Virus record (IMG/VR): IMGVR_UViG_2698536369_000025
Direction: 5' to 3' (one strand)
Length of the DNA stretch: 14,679 nt
DNA from: a virus
Lineage: Duplodnaviria; Heunggongvirae; Uroviricota; Caudoviricetes
Shown here: positions 1,369-14,679 of the stretch, piece by piece
Layout of the letters: each line of letters begins with the position of its first letter
Numbering within the stretch: the first letter of the stretch is position 1
The notes under the pieces: generated by a model
Told to the model about the DNA's origin: nothing
Database searches by the model: none
What the model saw: the letters and a program-made list of their open reading frames with translations, nothing else
Made by a program: the position numbers and the translations under genes

Positions 1369-1444
1369 GCCGATATAGCTCAGTTGGTAGAGCAGCGCAT
1401 TCGTAATGCGAAGGTCGTAGGTTCGACTCCTATTATCGGCACCA
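1369..1444 (+). tRNA. thrW: tRNA-Thr, anticodon CGU, 76 nt including CCA
   Basis: GCCGATATAGCTCAGTTGGTAGAGCAGCGCATTCGTAATGCGAAGGTCGTAGGTTCGACTCCTATTATCGGCACCA. Acceptor stem GCCGATA/TATCGGC, D-loop AGTTGGTAGAGC, T-arm GGTTCGACTCC, 7-nt anticodon loop TTCGTAA giving anticodon CGT, encoded 3' CCA. thrW is a known integration site for P4-type integrases (established knowledge). Confidence 0.93.
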
Positions 1445-4253: not shown

Positions 4254-5054
4254 ATGAAATTTCCAAAAACGCCCGTACAGGGGCGGGGCTTCGTTCGGCC
4301 TGAAAACCAGAATCTGCAAAATTTCGGCGAAATTATCCCGATTATTTCCGGCGTTATTGGCGGGAGTGAAACCACTATTGTTAGCGCCAGAGCGTTACAT
4401 AAGGCGTTAGGTGTAGGGCGCGTTTTCCGTTCGTGGATCAAGGGGCGCATTGAAGAATACGGGTTCACGGAAGGCGTGGATTATGAGGTTGTTGAATATT
4501 TGAGCCGACCCGATCCGGTGAGCGCAAAATCTCGCCAGCAAACCGCTCTTGAGTACATCATCACAGTGAACATGGCGAAAGAACTGGCGATGGTCGAACG
4601 TACCGAACAGGGCCGCGCCGTTCGCCAGTACTTTATCAAATGCGAGGAGGAGCTACACAAGGTTGCGCCTGTTCGTTCCGCAGCGTTACGCCGGGAACTG
4701 AAAGCCCGTATCACCGTTGCCAGCTACTTTAAGCCGATGTGTGCCGCGCTGGAGGCGTACCGGGCTGAACTGGGTAAAAACACGTTCCAGCACCACTACA
4801 CCACGGAAGCCAATATGCTGGCGCGTATCGTGCTGGGTGGCATGACTGCAAAACAGTGGGCGCAGGCGAACGGCATCACAGGCGAACCACGCGACCACAT
4901 GAGCACGTTGCAGCTTGAGCACCTTTCTTACCTTGAGCAGAGCAATATCACGCTGATTGAGTTAGGCCAGGACTACCACCAGCGGAAAGCTGAATTAATT
5001 CGCCTTTCGCAGCGTTGGTTAGCCCGTCGCATGGAGGAAAACAGCCATGTGTAA
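4254..5054 (+). CDS. Phage antirepressor-like regulatory protein (AntA/Bro-N-like N-terminal domain), 266 aa
   Basis: ATG 4254 with AGGAG 4244-4248; TAA 5052-5054. N-terminal segment TIVSARALHKALGVGRVFRSWIKGRIEEYGFTEGVDYEVV resembles the AntA/Bro-N antirepressor fold (recalled pattern, not searched). Assignment to the antirepressor family is moderate; the CDS call is stronger. Confidence 0.7.
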   Translation: MKFPKTPVQGRGFVRPENQNLQNFGEIIPIISGVIGGSETTIVSARALHKALGVGRVFRSWIKGRIEEYGFTEGVDYEVVEYLSRPDPVSAKSRQQTALEYIITVNMAKELAMVERTEQGRAVRQYFIKCEEELHKVAPVRSAALRRELKARITVASYFKPMCAALEAYRAELGKNTFQHHYTTEANMLARIVLGGMTAKQWAQANGITGEPRDHMSTLQLEHLSYLEQSNITLIELGQDYHQRKAELIRLSQRWLARRMEENSHV

Positions 5055-5324
5055 CGCTCTGACCGTTACAAAAAGAGAAAGCGCCCCGTTGCCGGAGCGC
5101 CTTTGTGAACGAATAGCCTACTGCGCCATATTGCTTACTGTCTACGAGGCAGATTATAGCGTTGTGGTCGCACAGAGTGAAGGCGCTGATCACCGTTACT
5201 ACAGCACGCCAGAAATGCAGAATATTTTGCTGCAAAATGTCGTTGGTCACGCTGTCCGGAAAGCAAAAAATTTTGCTGGTGGCGCGACTGATGCGATTTT
5301 TTCTGGTCGCCCGGTGCTGATCAA

Positions 5325-5627
5325 CTACTCCTGTTCTTTGGCCTTGCGGCGCTGGAGTTCTTCACGCGCGACGGTGACGAGTTGCCCGATCTCCTCGGCA
5401 GCTTTGACACCGATTTTTTCCACCTGCGCCAGTGCATCGAGCGAAGAAACCAGGGGATTTTCTCCTCTTCCTTCTGCCTGGCGGCGAGCGATCTCACCGC
5501 ACATGGCGGTTACTATGAATCCGGCGTTGCTTTCGCCGTCCAGTTTTACGGATTCCATGCCCTCCATAACATCGTGGGGAACCCTGATCGTTGTCATTTG
5601 CGATTTTGCATTTTTGTATACAGACAT
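5325..5627 (-). CDS. Small putative DNA-binding protein (ribbon-helix-helix-like N-terminus TTIRVPHDVMEGM), 100 aa, convergent with the upstream gene and divergent from the small-ORF operon
   Basis: Minus-strand ATG at 5627-5625, stop (CTA on plus) at 5325-5327; GGTGA-like SD upstream on the minus strand. Sits next to an operator-like repeat array. It fully overlaps a longer plus-strand ORF (5047..6201) judged spurious in this part. Confidence 0.6.
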   Translation of the reverse strand: MSVYKNAKSQMTTIRVPHDVMEGMESVKLDGESNAGFIVTAMCGEIARRQAEGRGENPLVSSLDALAQVEKIGVKAAEEIGQLVTVAREELQRRKAKEQE

Positions 5628-5835
5628 AGTTAATCACCAATTTGTTATGTGTATATCACTATACACAAAAGTGAGATATAAAAACACTTGCAATGTATAT
5701 CACCACAATATAATGTGTATCTCACATGGAGGTCGCTATGTATCTCACAATGAGCGATTCATAAAAACGACGAAACCCGGCAGTGCGCGAACACTAACCG
5801 GGCTTCTAACCAAACCGTTAAATGAGGTAACGATT
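5628..5835. promoter_or_regulatory. Divergent promoter/operator region with five copies of TGTAT(A/C)TCAC in both orientations, including a perfect 8-4-8 palindrome
   Basis: Palindrome TGTGTATA-tcac-TATACACA 5648-5667; GTGAGATATA 5671-5680 (inverted copy); TGTATATCAC 5694-5703; TGTATCTCAC 5717-5726 and 5739-5748. Lies between the minus-strand RHH-like gene and the plus-strand operon start at 5836. Confidence 0.55.
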
Positions 5836-6201
5836 ATGGCTGGAACACAGCATACCCAAACTCACCCTAAATTTATATACACCTTCCTGGCGGTGCACCG
5901 TGATTGCATGGCTGACGGTAAAAACACTGTACACGTAGCCGCTGATACGCTGGTGGATGCCTGCAAGATGCTCAATGATATGGGCTATATCTCGGCAACA
6001 TGGAAAGGGCGCGAAGAAAACACGCTGTTTATTCAGAAATGCGAAAACAATTTTATATGGCGTTTTATCGCCCTGAGCACAGCACAACCGCGTGTAATTC
6101 ACATCGAGGCCACCAGCGAACAGGAAGCACGCCAGCAATCTCCTGATGGCTGCGTGATGGTATTCGCTGCCCGCATTCGCCAGGAGGTGGAACATGTGTA
6201 A
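5836..6201 (+). CDS. Hypothetical protein, 121 aa, first gene of a coupled small-ORF operon
   Basis: ATG 5836 with GAGG 5824-5827 eight nt upstream; TAA 6199-6201. Same frame as the long ORF 5047..6201, but only this part has an RBS and does not overlap the minus-strand gene. Confidence 0.7.
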   Translation: MAGTQHTQTHPKFIYTFLAVHRDCMADGKNTVHVAADTLVDACKMLNDMGYISATWKGREENTLFIQKCENNFIWRFIALSTAQPRVIHIEATSEQEARQQSPDGCVMVFAARIRQEVEHV

Positions 6202-9674: not shown

Positions 9675-9949
9675 GCGGGATATGCGGGATATCGGGATAT
9701 GAAAAATATATTATATAGATATCAATTACTTATGTGTCGTTATCGTATCCCGCCATATCCCGCCGTATCCCGGTATTTTGGTTTACGAATGGTTTAAAAA
9801 CAAACGAAATCACTGTATCCCGGAACGTATCCCGCAATATGTTATTGATGCATAAGCAAAAAAAAACTTACCGGGATATGGCGGGATACGAAAAATCGCA
9901 TAACATAATGAAAAATAAGTTGTTTTTTGTTTGTATCCCGATATCCCGG
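9675..9949. repeat. Iteron array / putative origin of replication: about 12 copies of CGGGATA(T/C) in direct and inverted orientation flanking an AT-rich stretch
   Basis: GCGGGATAT at 9675-9683 and 9684-9692, CGGGATAT 9693-9700; AT-rich 9701-9744; inverted copies GTATCCCGCC 9745-9754, ATATCCCGCC 9755-9764, GTATCCCGG 9765-9773, 9815-9823, GTATCCCGC 9827-9835; CCGGGATAT 9871-9879, GGCGGGATA 9880-9888; GTATCCCG 9933-9940, ATATCCCGG 9941-9949. Confidence 0.6.
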
Positions 9950-10103
9950 TAAAAAATGGTTTTTTACGCCTTATAGAGTACAGAAAAGTGATTGCTCAAA
10001 TTTTGTATTACAGGTGGCTACCGTCAGCCATCCGACCTGGAAAAGGCATAAAAGCAGATATGTCATTTTGACAATCAGACTGTTTTGATGATTACACGCC
10101 GAT

Positions 10104-10661
10104 ATGACGGCAACAATGATGGGGAAGAGCATGCCAAAGCTGACCATTAACAGAAAGCCAAAAGGCATTTACGGCACGCCGCAGAAAACGACGCAGGCGG
10201 CACAGGAGCAGGATAAAACCACATCGGCACATAAAGTGATGCCCGGTAACCAGAAAGCGCAGCAGAAGCCCACAGGGGCGACACCGTGGCGGCATATGAC
10301 CAAACGGCAGCGCAAAAACCGCAGGCGCGTTAACCGCCTCACTGAGTTGTGGCCTGAATTATTCAGCCGGGAAGCACCGAAGCCGCTTAAGGTGGGGATA
10401 TTCGACGACCTGATGCAGGATCTCGCCGTCAGGGGGCTGGCATTCGGGCCAGGGGCATTACGTGCGACGCTGGCATCTTATGCGCAGTGTCCGCGCTATT
10501 ACCGCGCCTTAATGGCTGGTGGGGTACGCTACGACCTGAAAGGCCAGCCGTGCGGCGAGGTGACACCACAGGAACAACAGGACGCAGAAACGCGGCTGGT
10601 GGCGCTGAATGAGAAGCGCAAACGTCAGCGCCGGGCAGCAAAGGAGAAAACAGGTGCATGA
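10104..10661 (+). CDS. ProQ/FinO-family RNA-binding protein (185 aa as drawn; true start may be an internal ATG near 10131)
   Basis: Segment PLKVGIFDDLMQDL...LRATLASYAQCPRYYRALMAGGVRYDLKGQPCGEV parallels the ProQ N-terminal FinO-like domain (PLKIGIF.DL......LR.AL..Y......Y.......R.DL.G.PCGE); basic N- and C-terminal tails. Confidence 0.8.
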   Translation: MTATMMGKSMPKLTINRKPKGIYGTPQKTTQAAQEQDKTTSAHKVMPGNQKAQQKPTGATPWRHMTKRQRKNRRRVNRLTELWPELFSREAPKPLKVGIFDDLMQDLAVRGLAFGPGALRATLASYAQCPRYYRALMAGGVRYDLKGQPCGEVTPQEQQDAETRLVALNEKRKRQRRAAKEKTGA

Positions 10662-10945
10662 TTCACGACAGCAAAGCGGAAGCACTGGAAGCGCGTGGTC
10701 TGTACCGGAGAGCGGCGGAACGGTGGGCTGAGGTCATTATGCTGGCGAACGGTGACAAGGCACGGGAACAGGCGGCAAAGCGCCGTGCGGAATGTATCCG
10801 CAAGGCAGCACGCCCACCAGCAAAGCAGGATAATTTCGGGGAGATGCGCGAAACCATCAGCCGGGCACATGCCGGAATGGGATTACATCAGCCCAATGGT
10901 AAGGCATTCAGGAAATATCCTGGATCGAAAAATTGCAGTCAGTGA
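10658..10945 (+). CDS. PerC-family transcriptional regulator-like protein, 95 aa
   Basis: ATG 10658 overlaps the stop of the previous gene (ATGA). N-terminal AEALEARGLYRRAAERWAEVIM matches the PerC/Pch motif (LE.KGLWRRAA..W..VM), recalled from memory. Confidence 0.65.
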   Translation: MIHDSKAEALEARGLYRRAAERWAEVIMLANGDKAREQAAKRRAECIRKAARPPAKQDNFGEMRETISRAHAGMGLHQPNGKAFRKYPGSKNCSQ

Positions 10946-11055
10946 CGGAGGCCGGGATTTTTCCCGGCCTTATTGCATTTCATTAATTGCAATATTTATT
11001 GCTATCATTTCATTTTGTGCAATTGTTGTGGTTGTTATTATTCGGGAGAAAAATC

Positions 11056-11223
11056 ATGAAAGGTCACGGAGTAAAGCCAGTTTTACTTTCCCGGAGGCAG
11101 ATTGAAGCCCTGCAACGTATCCAGGACGAAGAGCGTCAGAAATCTGTGCTTGGTGTGGCGCCGTCGATTCATGTTATTGCCCGGCAACTGATGGATAAGG
11201 CACTTAAAGAGGTGAGACTGTGA
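11056..11223 (+). CDS. Hypothetical small protein, 55 aa (MKGHGVKPVLLSRRQIEALQRIQDEE...)
   Basis: ATG 11056 with GGGAG 11044-11048; stop overlaps the next start. The longer six-frame ORF from 10987 has a hydrophobic, RBS-less leader, so the shorter form is preferred. Confidence 0.55.
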   Translation: MKGHGVKPVLLSRRQIEALQRIQDEERQKSVLGVAPSIHVIARQLMDKALKEVRL

Positions 11224-11492
11224 AATTAAATATCAGAGTGGATAAACGCCAGCTATGGCAGAAAAAAGAGAACAGCGAGGCATTCAGGGCGTTGCTGGTG
11301 GAAAATCTTCAGCACCGGTTCAGTGGAGAGTTGCCTGATGCGCTGGGGAAGAAACTGGAATCTCTGACAGTGGAAATTGGCGATTATGGTTTTGTTGATG
11401 TTGAAAGCACGACAGCCAACACAGAAATCGTAAAACAGGTCGTCAACGATGTAATGAAAACCACGCTTAGTCAGCCATCCTGGCGTAACTGA
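11220..11492 (+). CDS. Hypothetical protein, 90 aa
   Basis: GTG 11220 overlapping the previous stop (GTGA); followed by a GC-rich hairpin at 11499-11519. Confidence 0.55.
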   Translation: MKLNIRVDKRQLWQKKENSEAFRALLVENLQHRFSGELPDALGKKLESLTVEIGDYGFVDVESTTANTEIVKQVVNDVMKTTLSQPSWRN

Positions 11493-11498
11493 ATCAAC

Positions 11499-11520
11499 AA
11501 GGGGCAGTTATTGCCCCTTT
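11499..11520 (+). terminator. Putative intrinsic terminator hairpin
   Basis: AAGGGGCA (11499-11506), loop GTTAT, TGCCCCTT (11512-11519), then T. The U-tract is short, so efficiency is uncertain. Confidence 0.4.
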
Positions 11521-11590
11521 CCTCCATATCCACAACGCATTCCTTTTCCGCATGAAATTATTTTTATCGTATATGCATGAGGTGAGCCAC

Positions 11591-12118
11591 ATGTTGATGA
11601 GTAAAGCTGAATACGCCAAACACAAAGGCGTAAGCCGCCAGACAGTTTACGACTGGATCGAGAAAGGCGAAGTGGTTATGTCCGGTAAAAAAATCGATGT
11701 GGAAGCGACAGAGCAGCGGAACAGCCCACCAGCACAGGGAAAAGACGCAGTTTCTGAAATGTGGCCAGAAAGAACGCTGGAAATGACGTGGGGCGAGTTC
11801 TGGAAAGCAGTTAAGGCCAGAGACGGTAAAATCCCTGCACCAGTAACGGACGATGACATACGGCAGCGTGTGCTGAATGCAGCCGGGGAATTAGGCTGGG
11901 AAGTGCAATTTCTTGATGGTGGTGCTATCTGCCTTGAGGATTGCGACGGGCAGCATTACTTTGAACAATACAATTTGCGGGGTAATGCCTGGCTGGCAAT
12001 TCGTATGTTGCGTTGTGAACTATGCTATGTTGCCAGCGATTGTCCCGATGAACAGGACACATGGAGTGAGGCAGGACTAAACGCCCTGGCTGAATGGGAA
12101 AAATCAGGCCATCAATGA
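11591..12118 (+). CDS. Putative HTH DNA-binding protein with Cys-rich C-terminal region, about 175 aa
   Basis: Preferred start ATG 11591 with GAGGTGAG 11579-11586 (the six-frame ORF starts at 11552 without an RBS). N-terminus SKAEYAKHKGVSRQTVYDWIEKGEV is a helix-turn-helix of the excisionase/MerR-like type. C-terminus has CLEDCDGQH...CELCYVASDC. TGA 12116-12118. Confidence 0.7.
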   Translation: MLMSKAEYAKHKGVSRQTVYDWIEKGEVVMSGKKIDVEATEQRNSPPAQGKDAVSEMWPERTLEMTWGEFWKAVKARDGKIPAPVTDDDIRQRVLNAAGELGWEVQFLDGGAICLEDCDGQHYFEQYNLRGNAWLAIRMLRCELCYVASDCPDEQDTWSEAGLNALAEWEKSGHQ

Positions 12119-12122
12119 CCTC

Positions 12123-12326
12123 AAAAAGTGTCAAGTTGAGCAGCTTTCCAGGTTGACACTTTACACTCTGAACGCGAAAAAGTGTCAACCTCGCTGTAAA
12201 CCCCGTCGTTACTGGCTTTGCGCCAGATTTACCACGTCAAAAAACCGAAAAATCGCGAAAAGTGTCAAGTTGCCATGCTTAGAAATGCTAAGGTTTGATA
12301 AGGTTTTTCGCGAAAAAGTGTCAACC
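12123..12326. repeat. Array of five AAAGTGTCAA boxes (two flavours: ...TGTCAAGTTG and ...TGTCAACC), one inverted; putative operator/iteron sites
   Basis: AAAAAGTGTCAAGTTG 12123-12138; inverted GGTTGACACTTT 12151-12162; GCGAAAAAGTGTCAACC 12174-12190; CGCGAAAAGTGTCAAGTTG 12254-12272; CGCGAAAAAGTGTCAACC 12309-12326. Lies between the HTH gene and a small ORF, upstream of the AT-rich cargo. Confidence 0.6.
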
Positions 12327-12356
12327 AGCCCCCTAAGATTTCCTAAGGTGTAAACC

Positions 12357-12536
12357 ATGACCATCACCGAAGCCGATATGCTGGAGATGATCCGCAGCAT
12401 TGCCGAAATCAAACAATCAGCAAGCAAAATTAACAGGTGTTCAGCGCCTGTTTCCGTTGTGCTGCAACAGGAACGCCACCAGCAGGATGATGTGAGGCCG
12501 TATCAGTGGAAGAAACTGGACAGGCTGCGACGGTGA
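12357..12536 (+). CDS. Hypothetical small protein, 59 aa (MTITEADMLEMIRSIAEIKQSASKINR...); below the size cutoff of the supplied ORF track
   Basis: ATG 12357 with AAGGTG six nt upstream; TGA 12534-12536; host-like GC; last gene before the compositional drop. Confidence 0.45.
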   Translation: MTITEADMLEMIRSIAEIKQSASKINRCSAPVSVVLQQERHQQDDVRPYQWKKLDRLRR

Positions 12537-12929
12537 GCGGAGCGTTACGGTAAGCCAACAGCCAAGCCAAACATTAAGTCTACAGGTAAGGTTGTTTTTT
12601 TGCAGGTGGCATTAATTTGTATGTTGGTTTGAGGAGCATTTTTACTGAGACTGTCTGTTCTGGTTAGTTTTTTCGTATGATATACACCTCATCAAAATTG
12701 TCCGACAGTGTGGAGCGGCGTGGCGGGGAGAGTATTGTGTGCTAGAGATTATAGTTACACTTTAATCTACGACACGATCGTAATTTTTCACTCTTCTTTT
12801 CAGATAAGCTACTACTGAGTTCACAAAAATAACATTATTTTATATCCATGCGTTATCTTTATCTGATATTAATGTGCTGTTCGGTCTTTTTTTGACTGCA
12901 AACGGCATGAATCATATTAAGGAAACCAA

Positions 12930-13091
12930 GTGAAAATATCTTTTTTTGGCGTAAATAACTTTAGGACAATATCAGGTGGCATTGGTAATAATAGAATAAT
13001 ATTTAAAGATACCAATACGCTTTTCATTTACGGGGCAAATAATGCTGGAAAATCAACTTATTTAAAAGCATATATGTTTTTTTTACAGTAA
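12930..13091 (+). CDS. N-terminal fragment (53 codons) of an OLD-family ABC-type ATPase carrying the Walker A motif; out of frame with the downstream part because of a T8 run
   Basis: GTG 12930 with AAGGAAA 12919-12925. Translation VKISFFGVNNFRTISGGIGNNRIIFKDTNTLFIYGANNAGKSTYLKAYMFFLQ* has the same opening architecture as P2 Old/GajA-type ATPases (as recalled). TAA 13089-13091 follows the T8 run 13077-13084. Confidence 0.6.
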   Translation: MKISFFGVNNFRTISGGIGNNRIIFKDTNTLFIYGANNAGKSTYLKAYMFFLQ

Positions 13092-13173
13092 TGAAAAACC
13101 TATCATTGATGATTTCTTTAAACGAGACGACAATAATTCTATTGAGTTCGAATTAGAAGTTCAACTTGATGAC

Positions 13174-14679
13174 TTGGATAAAGAAAGAATAGAAGCCAAA
13201 GCACCGAAGCAAAAGGAAAGTTATAAGAAGTATTTAAATAATGATTTTATTAGAATTAAGAAAGTATGGAGTAAAAATGGAACAAGAATAGAGGATAAAA
13301 ATTATACTTATGATTATAGTAAAGGAGATAGCGGCGAGTATGATGAAGTTGGATATGCAACAATTGGTTTGCATCAGGTCTTCCAATCTTGTTTGCCAAA
13401 ACCTGTATTTATAAAGGCTATGCCAACAGAGGAAGAAGCTAAGAAGATTCTTAATGAAATCCTAAAGATGATGGCTGAAAATACACTTAAAACATCTGAT
13501 CTTGATGAATTAAAAGCAGCTCAGAATAAAATAAAAGAATTACAAGACAAAATGTATGATCCAGAATTAATTGAAACCTATCAGAATTCAGTTAACGGAT
13601 ACTTTAACAAGATATTCGGTGATACTGCTATATGCTTCAAAGATCAAAAAGATAGGGTTGTTTGGACGGAGAATAAGCTTGGCAGAGATTTTGAAATTGA
13701 GTTTATGAAAAAAAATAGCCAAGGGGAGTTTGATGGCAATATCCCTTCAAGTTATAGCAGTGTAGGTCATGGAACTATTAGGACTGCAATATTTACATTA
13801 TTATTGATGAGAGATGTAGCAGAGCGTTTTGAAAGAAGGCTTGGACGTAAAGATTACATGGTTCTGTTTGAGGAGCCTGAGCTATTTCTCTATCCTAGAA
13901 TGGTGAAGGAACTTCGTGAATTGATTTATCAGGTGAGCACTGAAGACCTTCCATATCAAGTACTTTGTGCCTCACATTCATCTTCCATGATAGATCTTTC
14001 AAAGCCTAAATCTTCGATAATACGATTAGTTAATAATTCTACTGGAACTAAATCATATCAAATTAATGATCAATTTTTGAAGGATGCAAAAGGCATTGCT
14101 ACAAATGCTGAACTTAAACAAGAAATGTATGAAGTTTTGAGGTTCAACCCTTATATTTGTGAATCATTCTACGCTGATGAGGTACTTCTGATTGAGGGGC
14201 CAACAGAAGAAATAATATGTAGAGCTTTTTTACAAGAAACCCCATCAGATAAATCTATATTCGTATTGAACTGTGGTACGGTTAATAACATTCCTTTTTA
14301 TCAAAAAATCTTCTCAAGGTTTAATATAAAATATCATGTGATCTGTGATACAGATAAAGCAGAAATAGTTACCGTAGATCAATCTGGCAATGCAGATTTT
14401 GATTCTGGAATACAGAAAACAATTTCAGAACAGTATAGGAATGATTGTACTGCAATGAATGGTAATATAGGACTACTTCGAACTCATAACATTACATTTG
14501 AACCTGCTCATCAAGATGTTAGTATTCCTGACTTTTTGAGATTTGTTGATTGCGGTGATAGAAGCAAACCATTTAATGCAAACTTGTACTGGAAGGATAT
14601 TTTAAGGCCAAATATATCACATCAAGATATAAATAAAGTGCCTATAATTAAGTATTTGAATGAAATAATAGCACATTAA
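13174..14679 (+). CDS. OLD-family (overcoming lysogenisation defect) ATPase-Toprim nuclease-like protein, C-terminal about 500 aa; candidate anti-phage defence gene; frameshifted relative to its N-terminal Walker A fragment
   Basis: Open frame runs back to 13066 without a stop; the track start at 13174 is TTG. Motifs: GHGTIRTA (Q-loop/signature-like), VLFEEPELFLYP (Walker B), CASHSS (H-loop), then Toprim-like LLIEGPTEE and a DTD acidic motif (VICDTDK). AT-rich (15/60 and 21/60 G+C in two counted 60-nt samples, against 32/60 in the replication gene). TAA is the last codon of the window. Confidence 0.8.
   Translation: MDKERIEAKAPKQKESYKKYLNNDFIRIKKVWSKNGTRIEDKNYTYDYSKGDSGEYDEVGYATIGLHQVFQSCLPKPVFIKAMPTEEEAKKILNEILKMMAENTLKTSDLDELKAAQNKIKELQDKMYDPELIETYQNSVNGYFNKIFGDTAICFKDQKDRVVWTENKLGRDFEIEFMKKNSQGEFDGNIPSSYSSVGHGTIRTAIFTLLLMRDVAERFERRLGRKDYMVLFEEPELFLYPRMVKELRELIYQVSTEDLPYQVLCASHSSSMIDLSKPKSSIIRLVNNSTGTKSYQINDQFLKDAKGIATNAELKQEMYEVLRFNPYICESFYADEVLLIEGPTEEIICRAFLQETPSDKSIFVLNCGTVNNIPFYQKIFSRFNIKYHVICDTDKAEIVTVDQSGNADFDSGIQKTISEQYRNDCTAMNGNIGLLRTHNITFEPAHQDVSIPDFLRFVDCGDRSKPFNANLYWKDILRPNISHQDINKVPIIKYLNEIIAH

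Follow-up and report, generated by a model that had tools for sequence, protein, structure and literature searches.

Within a major anti-phage family, the Class 1 OLD nucleases form the branch that is least understood, and the members studied so far diverge in what they do. P2 OLD senses the loss of RecBCD and cuts the anticodon stem of tRNA-Thr(UGU) (PMC12445682), and it kills recBC cells (PMC12445682, PMC7049728). OLD from Vibrio cholerae (Vc OLD) is a DNA nickase that is independent of RecBCD, shows abortive-infection behaviour and needs Walker A, Walker B and the Toprim DxD motif (PMC12392090). YbjD acts independently of its Toprim domain, and OLD from Thermus scotoductus (TsOLD) has no known phage phenotype. 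Here, we describe an OLD-family gene at the distal end of the virus record IMGVR_UViG_2698536369_000025, whose whole 14,679 nucleotides are called the window. The gene occupies 12930–14679 on the plus strand of what appears, from its gene content, to be a phage-inducible chromosomal island (PICI) at thrW in Escherichia coli. Taken together, the evidence makes it likely that the gene encodes a stand-alone Class 1 OLD nuclease, that it is PICI cargo derived from a P4-like satellite, and that its intact form is anti-phage while the window copy is null.

The gene is split into two frames in the window. The first open reading frame (ORF1, 12930–13091, plus strand) starts with GTG and runs for 53 codons to a premature TAA. 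Its translation covers the N-terminal beta strands and, with GANNAGKST, the Walker A P-loop (K41 codon at 13050–13052). The +1 frame is open from 13066 to a TAA at 14677–14679, the final bases of the window, and its part from 13085 to 14679 on the plus strand encodes residues 52–582 of the repaired protein. The frameshift site is a T8 homopolymer at 13077–13084 (plus strand), where intact alleles have T7. Deleting one T from this run gives a single ORF of 582 residues, and the product is 100% identical to an intact E. coli database protein found on at least 26 contigs (P0001). The tract is also T7 in the two complete E. coli genomes with an intact gene, EC11 and 23AR0998, whose OLD genes share 99.3% and 87.7% DNA identity with the window copy. 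The start position is backed by an ATG at the equivalent place in the P4-like satellite L002 and in Enterobacter kobei.

The Pfam search of the repaired protein gave AAA_15 (2e-20), AAA_21 (1e-14) and, above the cutoff, PF20469 OLD-like_TOPRIM (2.6e-14, residues 413–475). The top PADLOC profile was Old (6e-63, 211 bits). Secondary PADLOC matches in the ATPase region were to GajA, AriA, AbiLi and ATPase-Toprim_I-B models; the best GajA model reached 68 bits (1.7e-19) versus 211 bits for Old, and the AriA models also gave 68 bits (4e-19), on the ATPase core only. The NCBIfam model of the retron-Eco8 effector, NF038234, scored 25 bits versus its cutoff of 250, and the DUF4435 domain (PF14491) had no match at E ≤ 1 in the Pfam search of the repaired protein. 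The sole PDB match by sequence was the Class 1 TsOLD (6P74), at 3.5e-6 and, with the 51-sequence family profile, at 2.9e-8. The protein is an OLD-family ATPase-Toprim. RefSeq already labels the gene generically as 'ATP-dependent nuclease', and the PADLOC Old model catches its product; in this respect the gene is an ordinary further member of a known family.

The ABC-type ATPase with Walker A, Walker B and H-loop is N-terminal, and a helical/dimerisation region is inserted in it (inside 13085–14679, plus strand, from Pfam AAA_15/AAA_21 and the predicted fold). The Toprim nuclease domain, with its conserved Glu and DxD acidic cluster, is C-terminal (residues 413–527, 14167–14511, plus strand, from the Pfam OLD-like_TOPRIM match and the TsOLD alignment). 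Walker B, VLFEEPELFLYP, carries E314/E315 (13870–13875), and the H-loop, ASHSS, carries H349 (13975–13977). Both were placed on the plus strand by translation, invariance and alignment of this region to TsOLD E276 and H310. On the same strand, the acidic residues of the Toprim domain are E422 (14194–14196) and E426 (14206–14208) in LLIEGPTEE and D473 (14347–14349) and D475 (14353–14355) in DTD, and they align with TsOLD E377, D381, D431 and D433, respectively. Conservation was assessed with 51 homologs of 57–95% identity. K41, E314/E315, H349, E422, E426, D473 and D475 are all invariant among them, and they correspond to residues with a demonstrated catalytic role in TsOLD (PMC7049728). From their invariance, T522 and E524 are probably the ligands of metal B, the second metal site. 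The preliminary description of this DNA had arrived at the same protein, an OLD-family ATPase-Toprim of about 582 residues after joining the frames, with the same five motifs and an end at the last base of the window. The significant ABC-ATPase and OLD-like Toprim profile matches of the repaired protein bear it out.

The AlphaFold2 model made from the 51 homologs had a predicted local distance difference test score (pLDDT) of 80.8 and a predicted template modelling score (pTM) of 0.81. Foldseek searches with this model returned GajA (4.6e-20), TsOLD (9e-19) and retron-Eco8 OLD (2.7e-14). A class was not assignable by fold because these three match about equally. The published structural criterion of Class 1 is the lack of the Class 2 Toprim insert and C-terminal helical domain (Schiltz 2020). 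In our model, viewed without residue-level superposition, two C-terminal helices (546–561 and 571–581) lie beyond the Toprim core. The C-terminal ~100 residues are conserved only inside the subfamily, where about six clusters at 50% identity align over the full length, and this part of the protein is a candidate specificity region.

The class was assigned from the gene context, which includes the DNA beyond the window. The 53-residue product of ORF1 was found on one contig only in the public collection, GCA_001284545.1 CYBM01000015.1 (L012). This contig is identical to window 9930–14679 and shows the true DNA on the 3' side. By folding, a hairpin of -27 kcal/mol (z -6.15) begins 3 nt past the stop codon of the OLD gene. 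We infer that it is a terminator; a consensus terminator scan did not call it one, and its T-tail is weak. From +40 to +379 after the stop codon (L012 4790–5130), the minus strand holds the last ~115 codons of a decayed P4-type integrase, which carries stop codons and frameshifts (blastx 2e-22). The right attachment site, attR, lies 762 bp past the window end (L012 5513–5528) and reads TCCTATTATCG-CACCA, the thrW 3' end minus one G. It was located by eye and via empty-site genomes; an exact-match search had missed it because of the lacking G. This imperfect repeat might reduce excision. Beyond attR, the source contig has about 85 bp of core sequence and then diverges, and related loci have a LysR remnant and paoDCBA. 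The empty site in strain WP8-S17-ESBL-05 (proA-thrW-LysR remnant-paoD) confirms the island borders.

In the source contig and in seven relatives, no helicase, reverse transcriptase or AriB-like partner adjoins the OLD gene. The same holds for a P4-like satellite, E. kobei, Vibrio lentus and Leptospira. Overall, eight contexts from four genera lack an adjacent gene of these kinds. In the P4-like satellite at ssrA, a 93% identical protein is encoded alone between psu and int. In E. kobei, the OLD gene lies beside ssrA and P4 remnants. In V. lentus, it is solitary between housekeeping genes with no satellite around, and in Leptospira it is found within a TIR/AbiTii/HepT-MNT defence island. Rfam models, including those of retron non-coding RNA (ncRNA), gave no RNA family in or after the OLD gene. 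Since no partner adjoins the gene in any of these contexts, it is a Class 1 (single-gene) OLD under the published context rule for OLD classes (PMC10568477, PMC12392090).

The location of the gene in the island is that of variable cargo. The last conserved gene of the PICI backbone (12357–12536, plus strand) encodes 59 residues and has no assigned function. Backbone homology among related PICIs stops about 70–150 bp past this gene, and variable cargo follows thereafter. In the same slot, the related PICIs L020–L023 carry SieB, a 662-residue protein annotated as RNA-binding, DUF4747 with a hypothetical protein, or a methyltransferase with DUF262 and a HEPN-like nuclease. Further cargo consists of Abi_2 with the OLD gene described here. 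These defence-type genes agree with the earlier description of the gene as distal cargo in a defence hotspot of a satellite-like island at thrW. Several of the alternative cargos in L020–L023 are themselves uncharacterised candidate defence genes. In the Abi_2 arrangement, the Abi_2 gene (PF07751; L003 6602–7525, L004 6540–7526) sits between the 59-residue gene and the cos-OLD cassette in some otherwise near-identical islands, and two defence-type genes thus stand in tandem.

At the junction of backbone and cargo, 195 bp upstream of the OLD start codon, lies a P2/P4-type cos-like core, GGCGTGGCGGGGAGAGTAT (12717–12735, plus strand). Of its 19 positions, 15 are the same in P2 cosR, GGCGAGGCGGGGAAAGCAC, and one base separates it from the cos core of the P4-like satellite L002 (14001–14019), whose own cos region has matches in 75 records of P2-like phages. 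A similar cos-like core is present at the junction in two sister PICIs that carry other cargo (e.g. L022 7754–7772) and absent from two others. This suggests a cos-adjacent hotspot like that of P4 and P2, and the PICI possibly has a P2-like helper phage. The cos-like core is also the left edge of the DNA shared with L002. The homology runs from 12717 through the gene to 369 bp past its stop codon and ends in the integrase remnant. The cassette consists of the cos-like core, a 195-bp leader, the OLD gene, the terminator-like hairpin and the dead P4-type integrase piece. Because a P4-type integrase remnant follows the OLD gene, the simplest reading would be that the PICI gained the cassette from the psu-int hotspot of a P4-like satellite and that cos was the left anchor common to both. 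The conserved leader itself (12736–12929, plus strand) ends with a Shine-Dalgarno sequence, AAGGA (12919–12923), 6 nt before the start codon. An aligned block that spans it (window 12690–12945) has a mean column identity of about 85% over four loci from the PICI, P4-like and E. kobei contexts. A promoter candidate in the leader read by eye, TTGACT-17-TATTAA, was rejected as unconvincing, with the start codon too near.

The base composition of the OLD gene also sets it apart. The G+C content is 32.1% in the OLD gene (24% at third codon positions), 48.3% in the rest of the island and 54.7% in proA. The preliminary description was thus right that the G+C is far below that of the surroundings. Its further statement that the gene was recently acquired holds only loosely, considering that the gene family is widespread in Enterobacterales and that the synonymous divergence (dS) between two E. 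coli alleles is 0.61. For that pair, which consists of the window allele and that of 23AR0998, the ratio of nonsynonymous to synonymous divergence (dN/dS) is 0.053. Therefore, the intact gene is under strong purifying selection. Its distribution is rare and patchy, with 2 of 5,426 complete E. coli genomes carrying it, and the conserved clade reaches beyond E. coli to Vibrio and Leptospira.

The intact 582-residue protein would most likely be a single-protein abortive-infection or anti-phage effector. The ABC-type ATPase (K41, E314/E315 and H349) may bind and hydrolyse ATP, thereby licensing or positioning the enzyme. The two-metal Toprim site (E422, E426, D473, D475 and probably T522/E524) would then cleave nucleic acid during infection. 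Possible targets are phage DNA, by nicking as with Vc OLD, and a host tRNA as with P2 OLD, and the sequence does not discriminate between the two. A bolder proposal, which we regard as rather speculative, is that the OLD clade is a mechanistically distinct single-protein immune sensor-effector. It would have its own trigger and target through the C-terminal ~100 residues, a T7 on/off site tempering autoimmunity, and cos sites common to PICI and P4-like satellites as recombination anchors that shuttle defence cargo between satellite families.

The window copy differs from the intact form by the T8 insertion after codon 51, which separates the P-loop from the remaining protein. The downstream frame offers no convincing restart: its first start codon, TTG at 13174, lacks a Shine-Dalgarno sequence. 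The copy is probably inactive because the frameshift cuts Walker A off from the rest of the protein, and the Walker A lysine is needed in P2 OLD and Vc OLD (PMC7049728, PMC12392090). No other lesion is present in the OLD gene. Therefore, the frameshift is either very recent or an assembly error, and the most probable reading of the window copy is a null allele of very recent origin. The preliminary description had noted the two frames and spoken of a repaired gene, and the break at T8 is confirmed; the probable loss of function in this copy was a step it did not take. A second T7 run, in codons 4–6 of the OLD gene (S-F-F, window 12941–12947), is a potential slippage site and is intact here.

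Several points weigh against this interpretation of the gene and of its window copy. The nearest characterised proteins are less than 25% identical and all lie outside the subfamily, and Class 1 OLDs vary in trigger and target. The class is assigned by gene context, as in the published definition, rather than by phylogeny. A consensus scan of the leader gave no confident sigma-70 promoter on the plus strand. The phenotype of YbjD needs neither the Walker A lysine nor the Toprim domain, and therefore the rule that loss of the P-loop means a dead protein is not universal. Finally, the T8 could be a sequencing or assembly error, as only one contig carries it. In that case, the gene would be intact in the organism and the extra T would be a homopolymer error in the draft assembly GCA_001284545.1. 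We take this possibility seriously, although it is the less expected outcome. Apart from the extra T, the product is 100% identical to the intact protein on at least 26 contigs. The nearest relative (L007) differs by 4 substitutions in 9.75 kb, and another assembly, L025, contains five homopolymer deletions that look like artefacts. On the other side, the T8 contig is listed for 2 samples, and real +1/-1 changes are common in runs of 7–8 nt. Moreover, T8 is the sole gap relative to L007 over 9,750 bp that contain many homopolymers, and therefore the assembly is not generally error-prone. The five single-base homopolymer deletions of L025 (GCA_020556445.1), counted against the window, affect P0081, a 417-residue 'truncated OLD'. 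This protein was considered as a second pseudogene and rejected; it is most likely a long-read assembly artefact. The T7/T8 tract might also be a slippage switch that limits the cost of a toxic nuclease, by phase variation or by partial rescue through transcriptional slippage. The break does sit in a homopolymer, the T7 tract is kept across alleles of 88% DNA identity, and a diverged allele is shifted at the same tract. This allele, P0233 on the metagenome scaffold L024 (87% amino acid identity), has T6 instead of T7 and a product of 74 residues. However, only these two shifted alleles stand against several hundred contigs with intact copies, and one of the two is on a 551-bp metagenome scaffold. 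The T7 also encodes F50-F51-Y52, which are conserved, and therefore its conservation has a coding explanation. Runs of 8 nt are short for efficient slippage by RNA polymerase. The change required is +1, which the -1 slippery pattern U UUU UUU cannot give; -1 programmed frameshifting at U UUU UUU A was ruled out for the same reason, the downstream frame being +1. Therefore, a slippage switch seems very improbable.

Two other explanations concern the role of the intact gene. It might serve a purpose other than defence, such as interference with a helper phage, processing in replication or packaging near cos, or housekeeping repair or cell-cycle work like that of archaeal Cran1. The gene lies beside a cos-like site on two satellite families, and at least one OLD-family ATPase is reported to have a non-defence role (PMC12796447). 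However, unrelated defence-type cargo fills the same slot of sister PICIs, and therefore the OLD gene is not part of the satellite core. It occurs without a satellite in Vibrio and in a defence island in Leptospira, and its rare and patchy occurrence among complete E. coli genomes is also at odds with such a role, which we consider improbable. The preliminary description had suspected that the gene was the first of a system continuing past the window, with GajA and fused PARIS proteins as models. Such a multi-gene OLD system (Gabija, PARIS, retron or AbiL) would have its partner beyond the window. The secondary PADLOC matches of the ATPase region, and a fold as close to GajA and Eco8 OLD as to TsOLD, do point that way. 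Yet the source contig and the seven related loci have no notable ORF before attR and the core genes. The hairpin and the integrase remnant directly follow the stop codon, and the gene stands alone between psu and int in the P4-like satellite and is solitary in Vibrio, E. kobei and Leptospira. The profiles separate as well, with 211 bits for Old versus at most 68 for GajA, 25 versus 250 for the Eco8 model, no DUF4435 and no GajB. A multi-gene system is already contradicted by these observations and is hardly credible here. The reading of a stand-alone Class 1 OLD with a broken window copy is preferred.

The carrier was identified by its attachment sites and gene set. The attL core, TCCTATTATCGGCACCA, lies at 1428–1444 (plus strand) inside the thrW 3' end, and a tyrosine integrase gene adjoins thrW (1611–2825). 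Between the integrase and the next ORF there is an int-alpA RNA motif (Rfam RF02996, 2870–2937, plus strand, 45.5 bits, above the gathering score). This motif is typical for PICI and P4-type elements. The other island genes encode an AntA antirepressor, a DUF927 primase, a ProQ/FinO protein and a PerC protein. The distance from attL to attR is about 14 kb. An integrase at an attachment site, an alpA-type regulator region, a primase/replication module, a size within about 10–20 kb and no structural or lysis genes are the features of a PICI. The att core TCCTATTATC was reported for the PICI EcCIMP1, which was mobilised experimentally (PMC11773190). Judged from these sites and genes, the carrier is an EcCIMP1-type PICI satellite at thrW in E. 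coli. Related PICIs were found in 322 of the 5,426 complete E. coli genomes. The central part of the island is mosaic between strains. A 384-residue ORF at window 5047–6201 (plus strand) has no significant Pfam match. In strain EC11, the annotation of the equivalent region shows a truncated pseudogene and, on the opposite strand, a YlcI/YnfO gene. Some strains have another island in tandem at thrW, beyond attR (L004 10512–11017; L023 11599–13580), with an integrase arm fragment, MarR and the Vat autotransporter, and the same layout was described beside EcCIMP1.

For the window, the result is mostly clarifying: it holds one known gene type with no hidden partner, in a copy that is probably dead. 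For the Class 1 OLDs, the gene represents a well-conserved clade outside the characterised set that moves between two satellite families. Its intact allele would be worth characterising next, and the T8 copy could serve as a natural null control.

Gabija GajA (Class 2) differs in that no GajB UvrD-like helicase was found beside the OLD gene in any locus examined, and in that its profile scores far below Old. Retron-Eco8 OLD (Class 3) differs in that no reverse transcriptase or msr/msd ncRNA is nearby in any context, besides the 25 bits of NF038234. PARIS has an AriB-type DUF4435, which is absent here; the Toprim of the window protein is PF20469. Among the satellites, EcCIMP1 (PMC11773190) is alike in its tRNA-Thr site between proA and the pao/yagU region and in its att core. 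It is also alike in its gene set of integrase, antirepressor, primase, PerC and int-alpA RNA motif, but no OLD gene was reported for it. The P4-like satellite hotspot (PMC9122126) is alike in that the 93% identical protein occupies its psu-int slot at ssrA. A search with the N-terminal peptide did not find an OLD protein of this type in the accessible part of the supplementary tables of that P4/P2 hotspot study (PMC9122126).

Among the OLD proteins, P2 Old (UniProt P13520) is the archetype of Class 1. It is likewise a single-gene ATPase-Toprim in a cos-adjacent hotspot of a mobile element, with 586 versus 582 residues. PADLOC Old is the top profile for both proteins, and the Walker B, H-loop, E-G and DxD motifs align. 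However, the relationship is not a close full-length one. The identity by BLASTP is 24% over 215 residues, and P2 Old scores 712 bits on the Old profile versus 211 for the window protein and 230–259 for distant relatives of the latter. The profile match of the window protein ends at residue 485 and leaves the last ~100 residues unmatched, where most distant relatives are unaligned too. TsOLD (PDB 6P74) shares about 15–16% identity, and its D-loop His283 corresponds to Tyr321 in the window protein. The window protein is 54 residues longer, with extra C-terminal helices in the model (residues 546–581). Vc OLD (PMC12392090), compared from its published description, is likewise a solitary OLD on a mobile defence element beside an integrase. 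Its Walker B aspartate D313 differs from the invariant E314 of the subfamily described here, and therefore Vc OLD is probably not closely related to the members that this subfamily has in Vibrio. Its abortive-infection behaviour and its need for Walker A, Walker B and the Toprim DxD make Vc OLD the most likely working model for the window protein.

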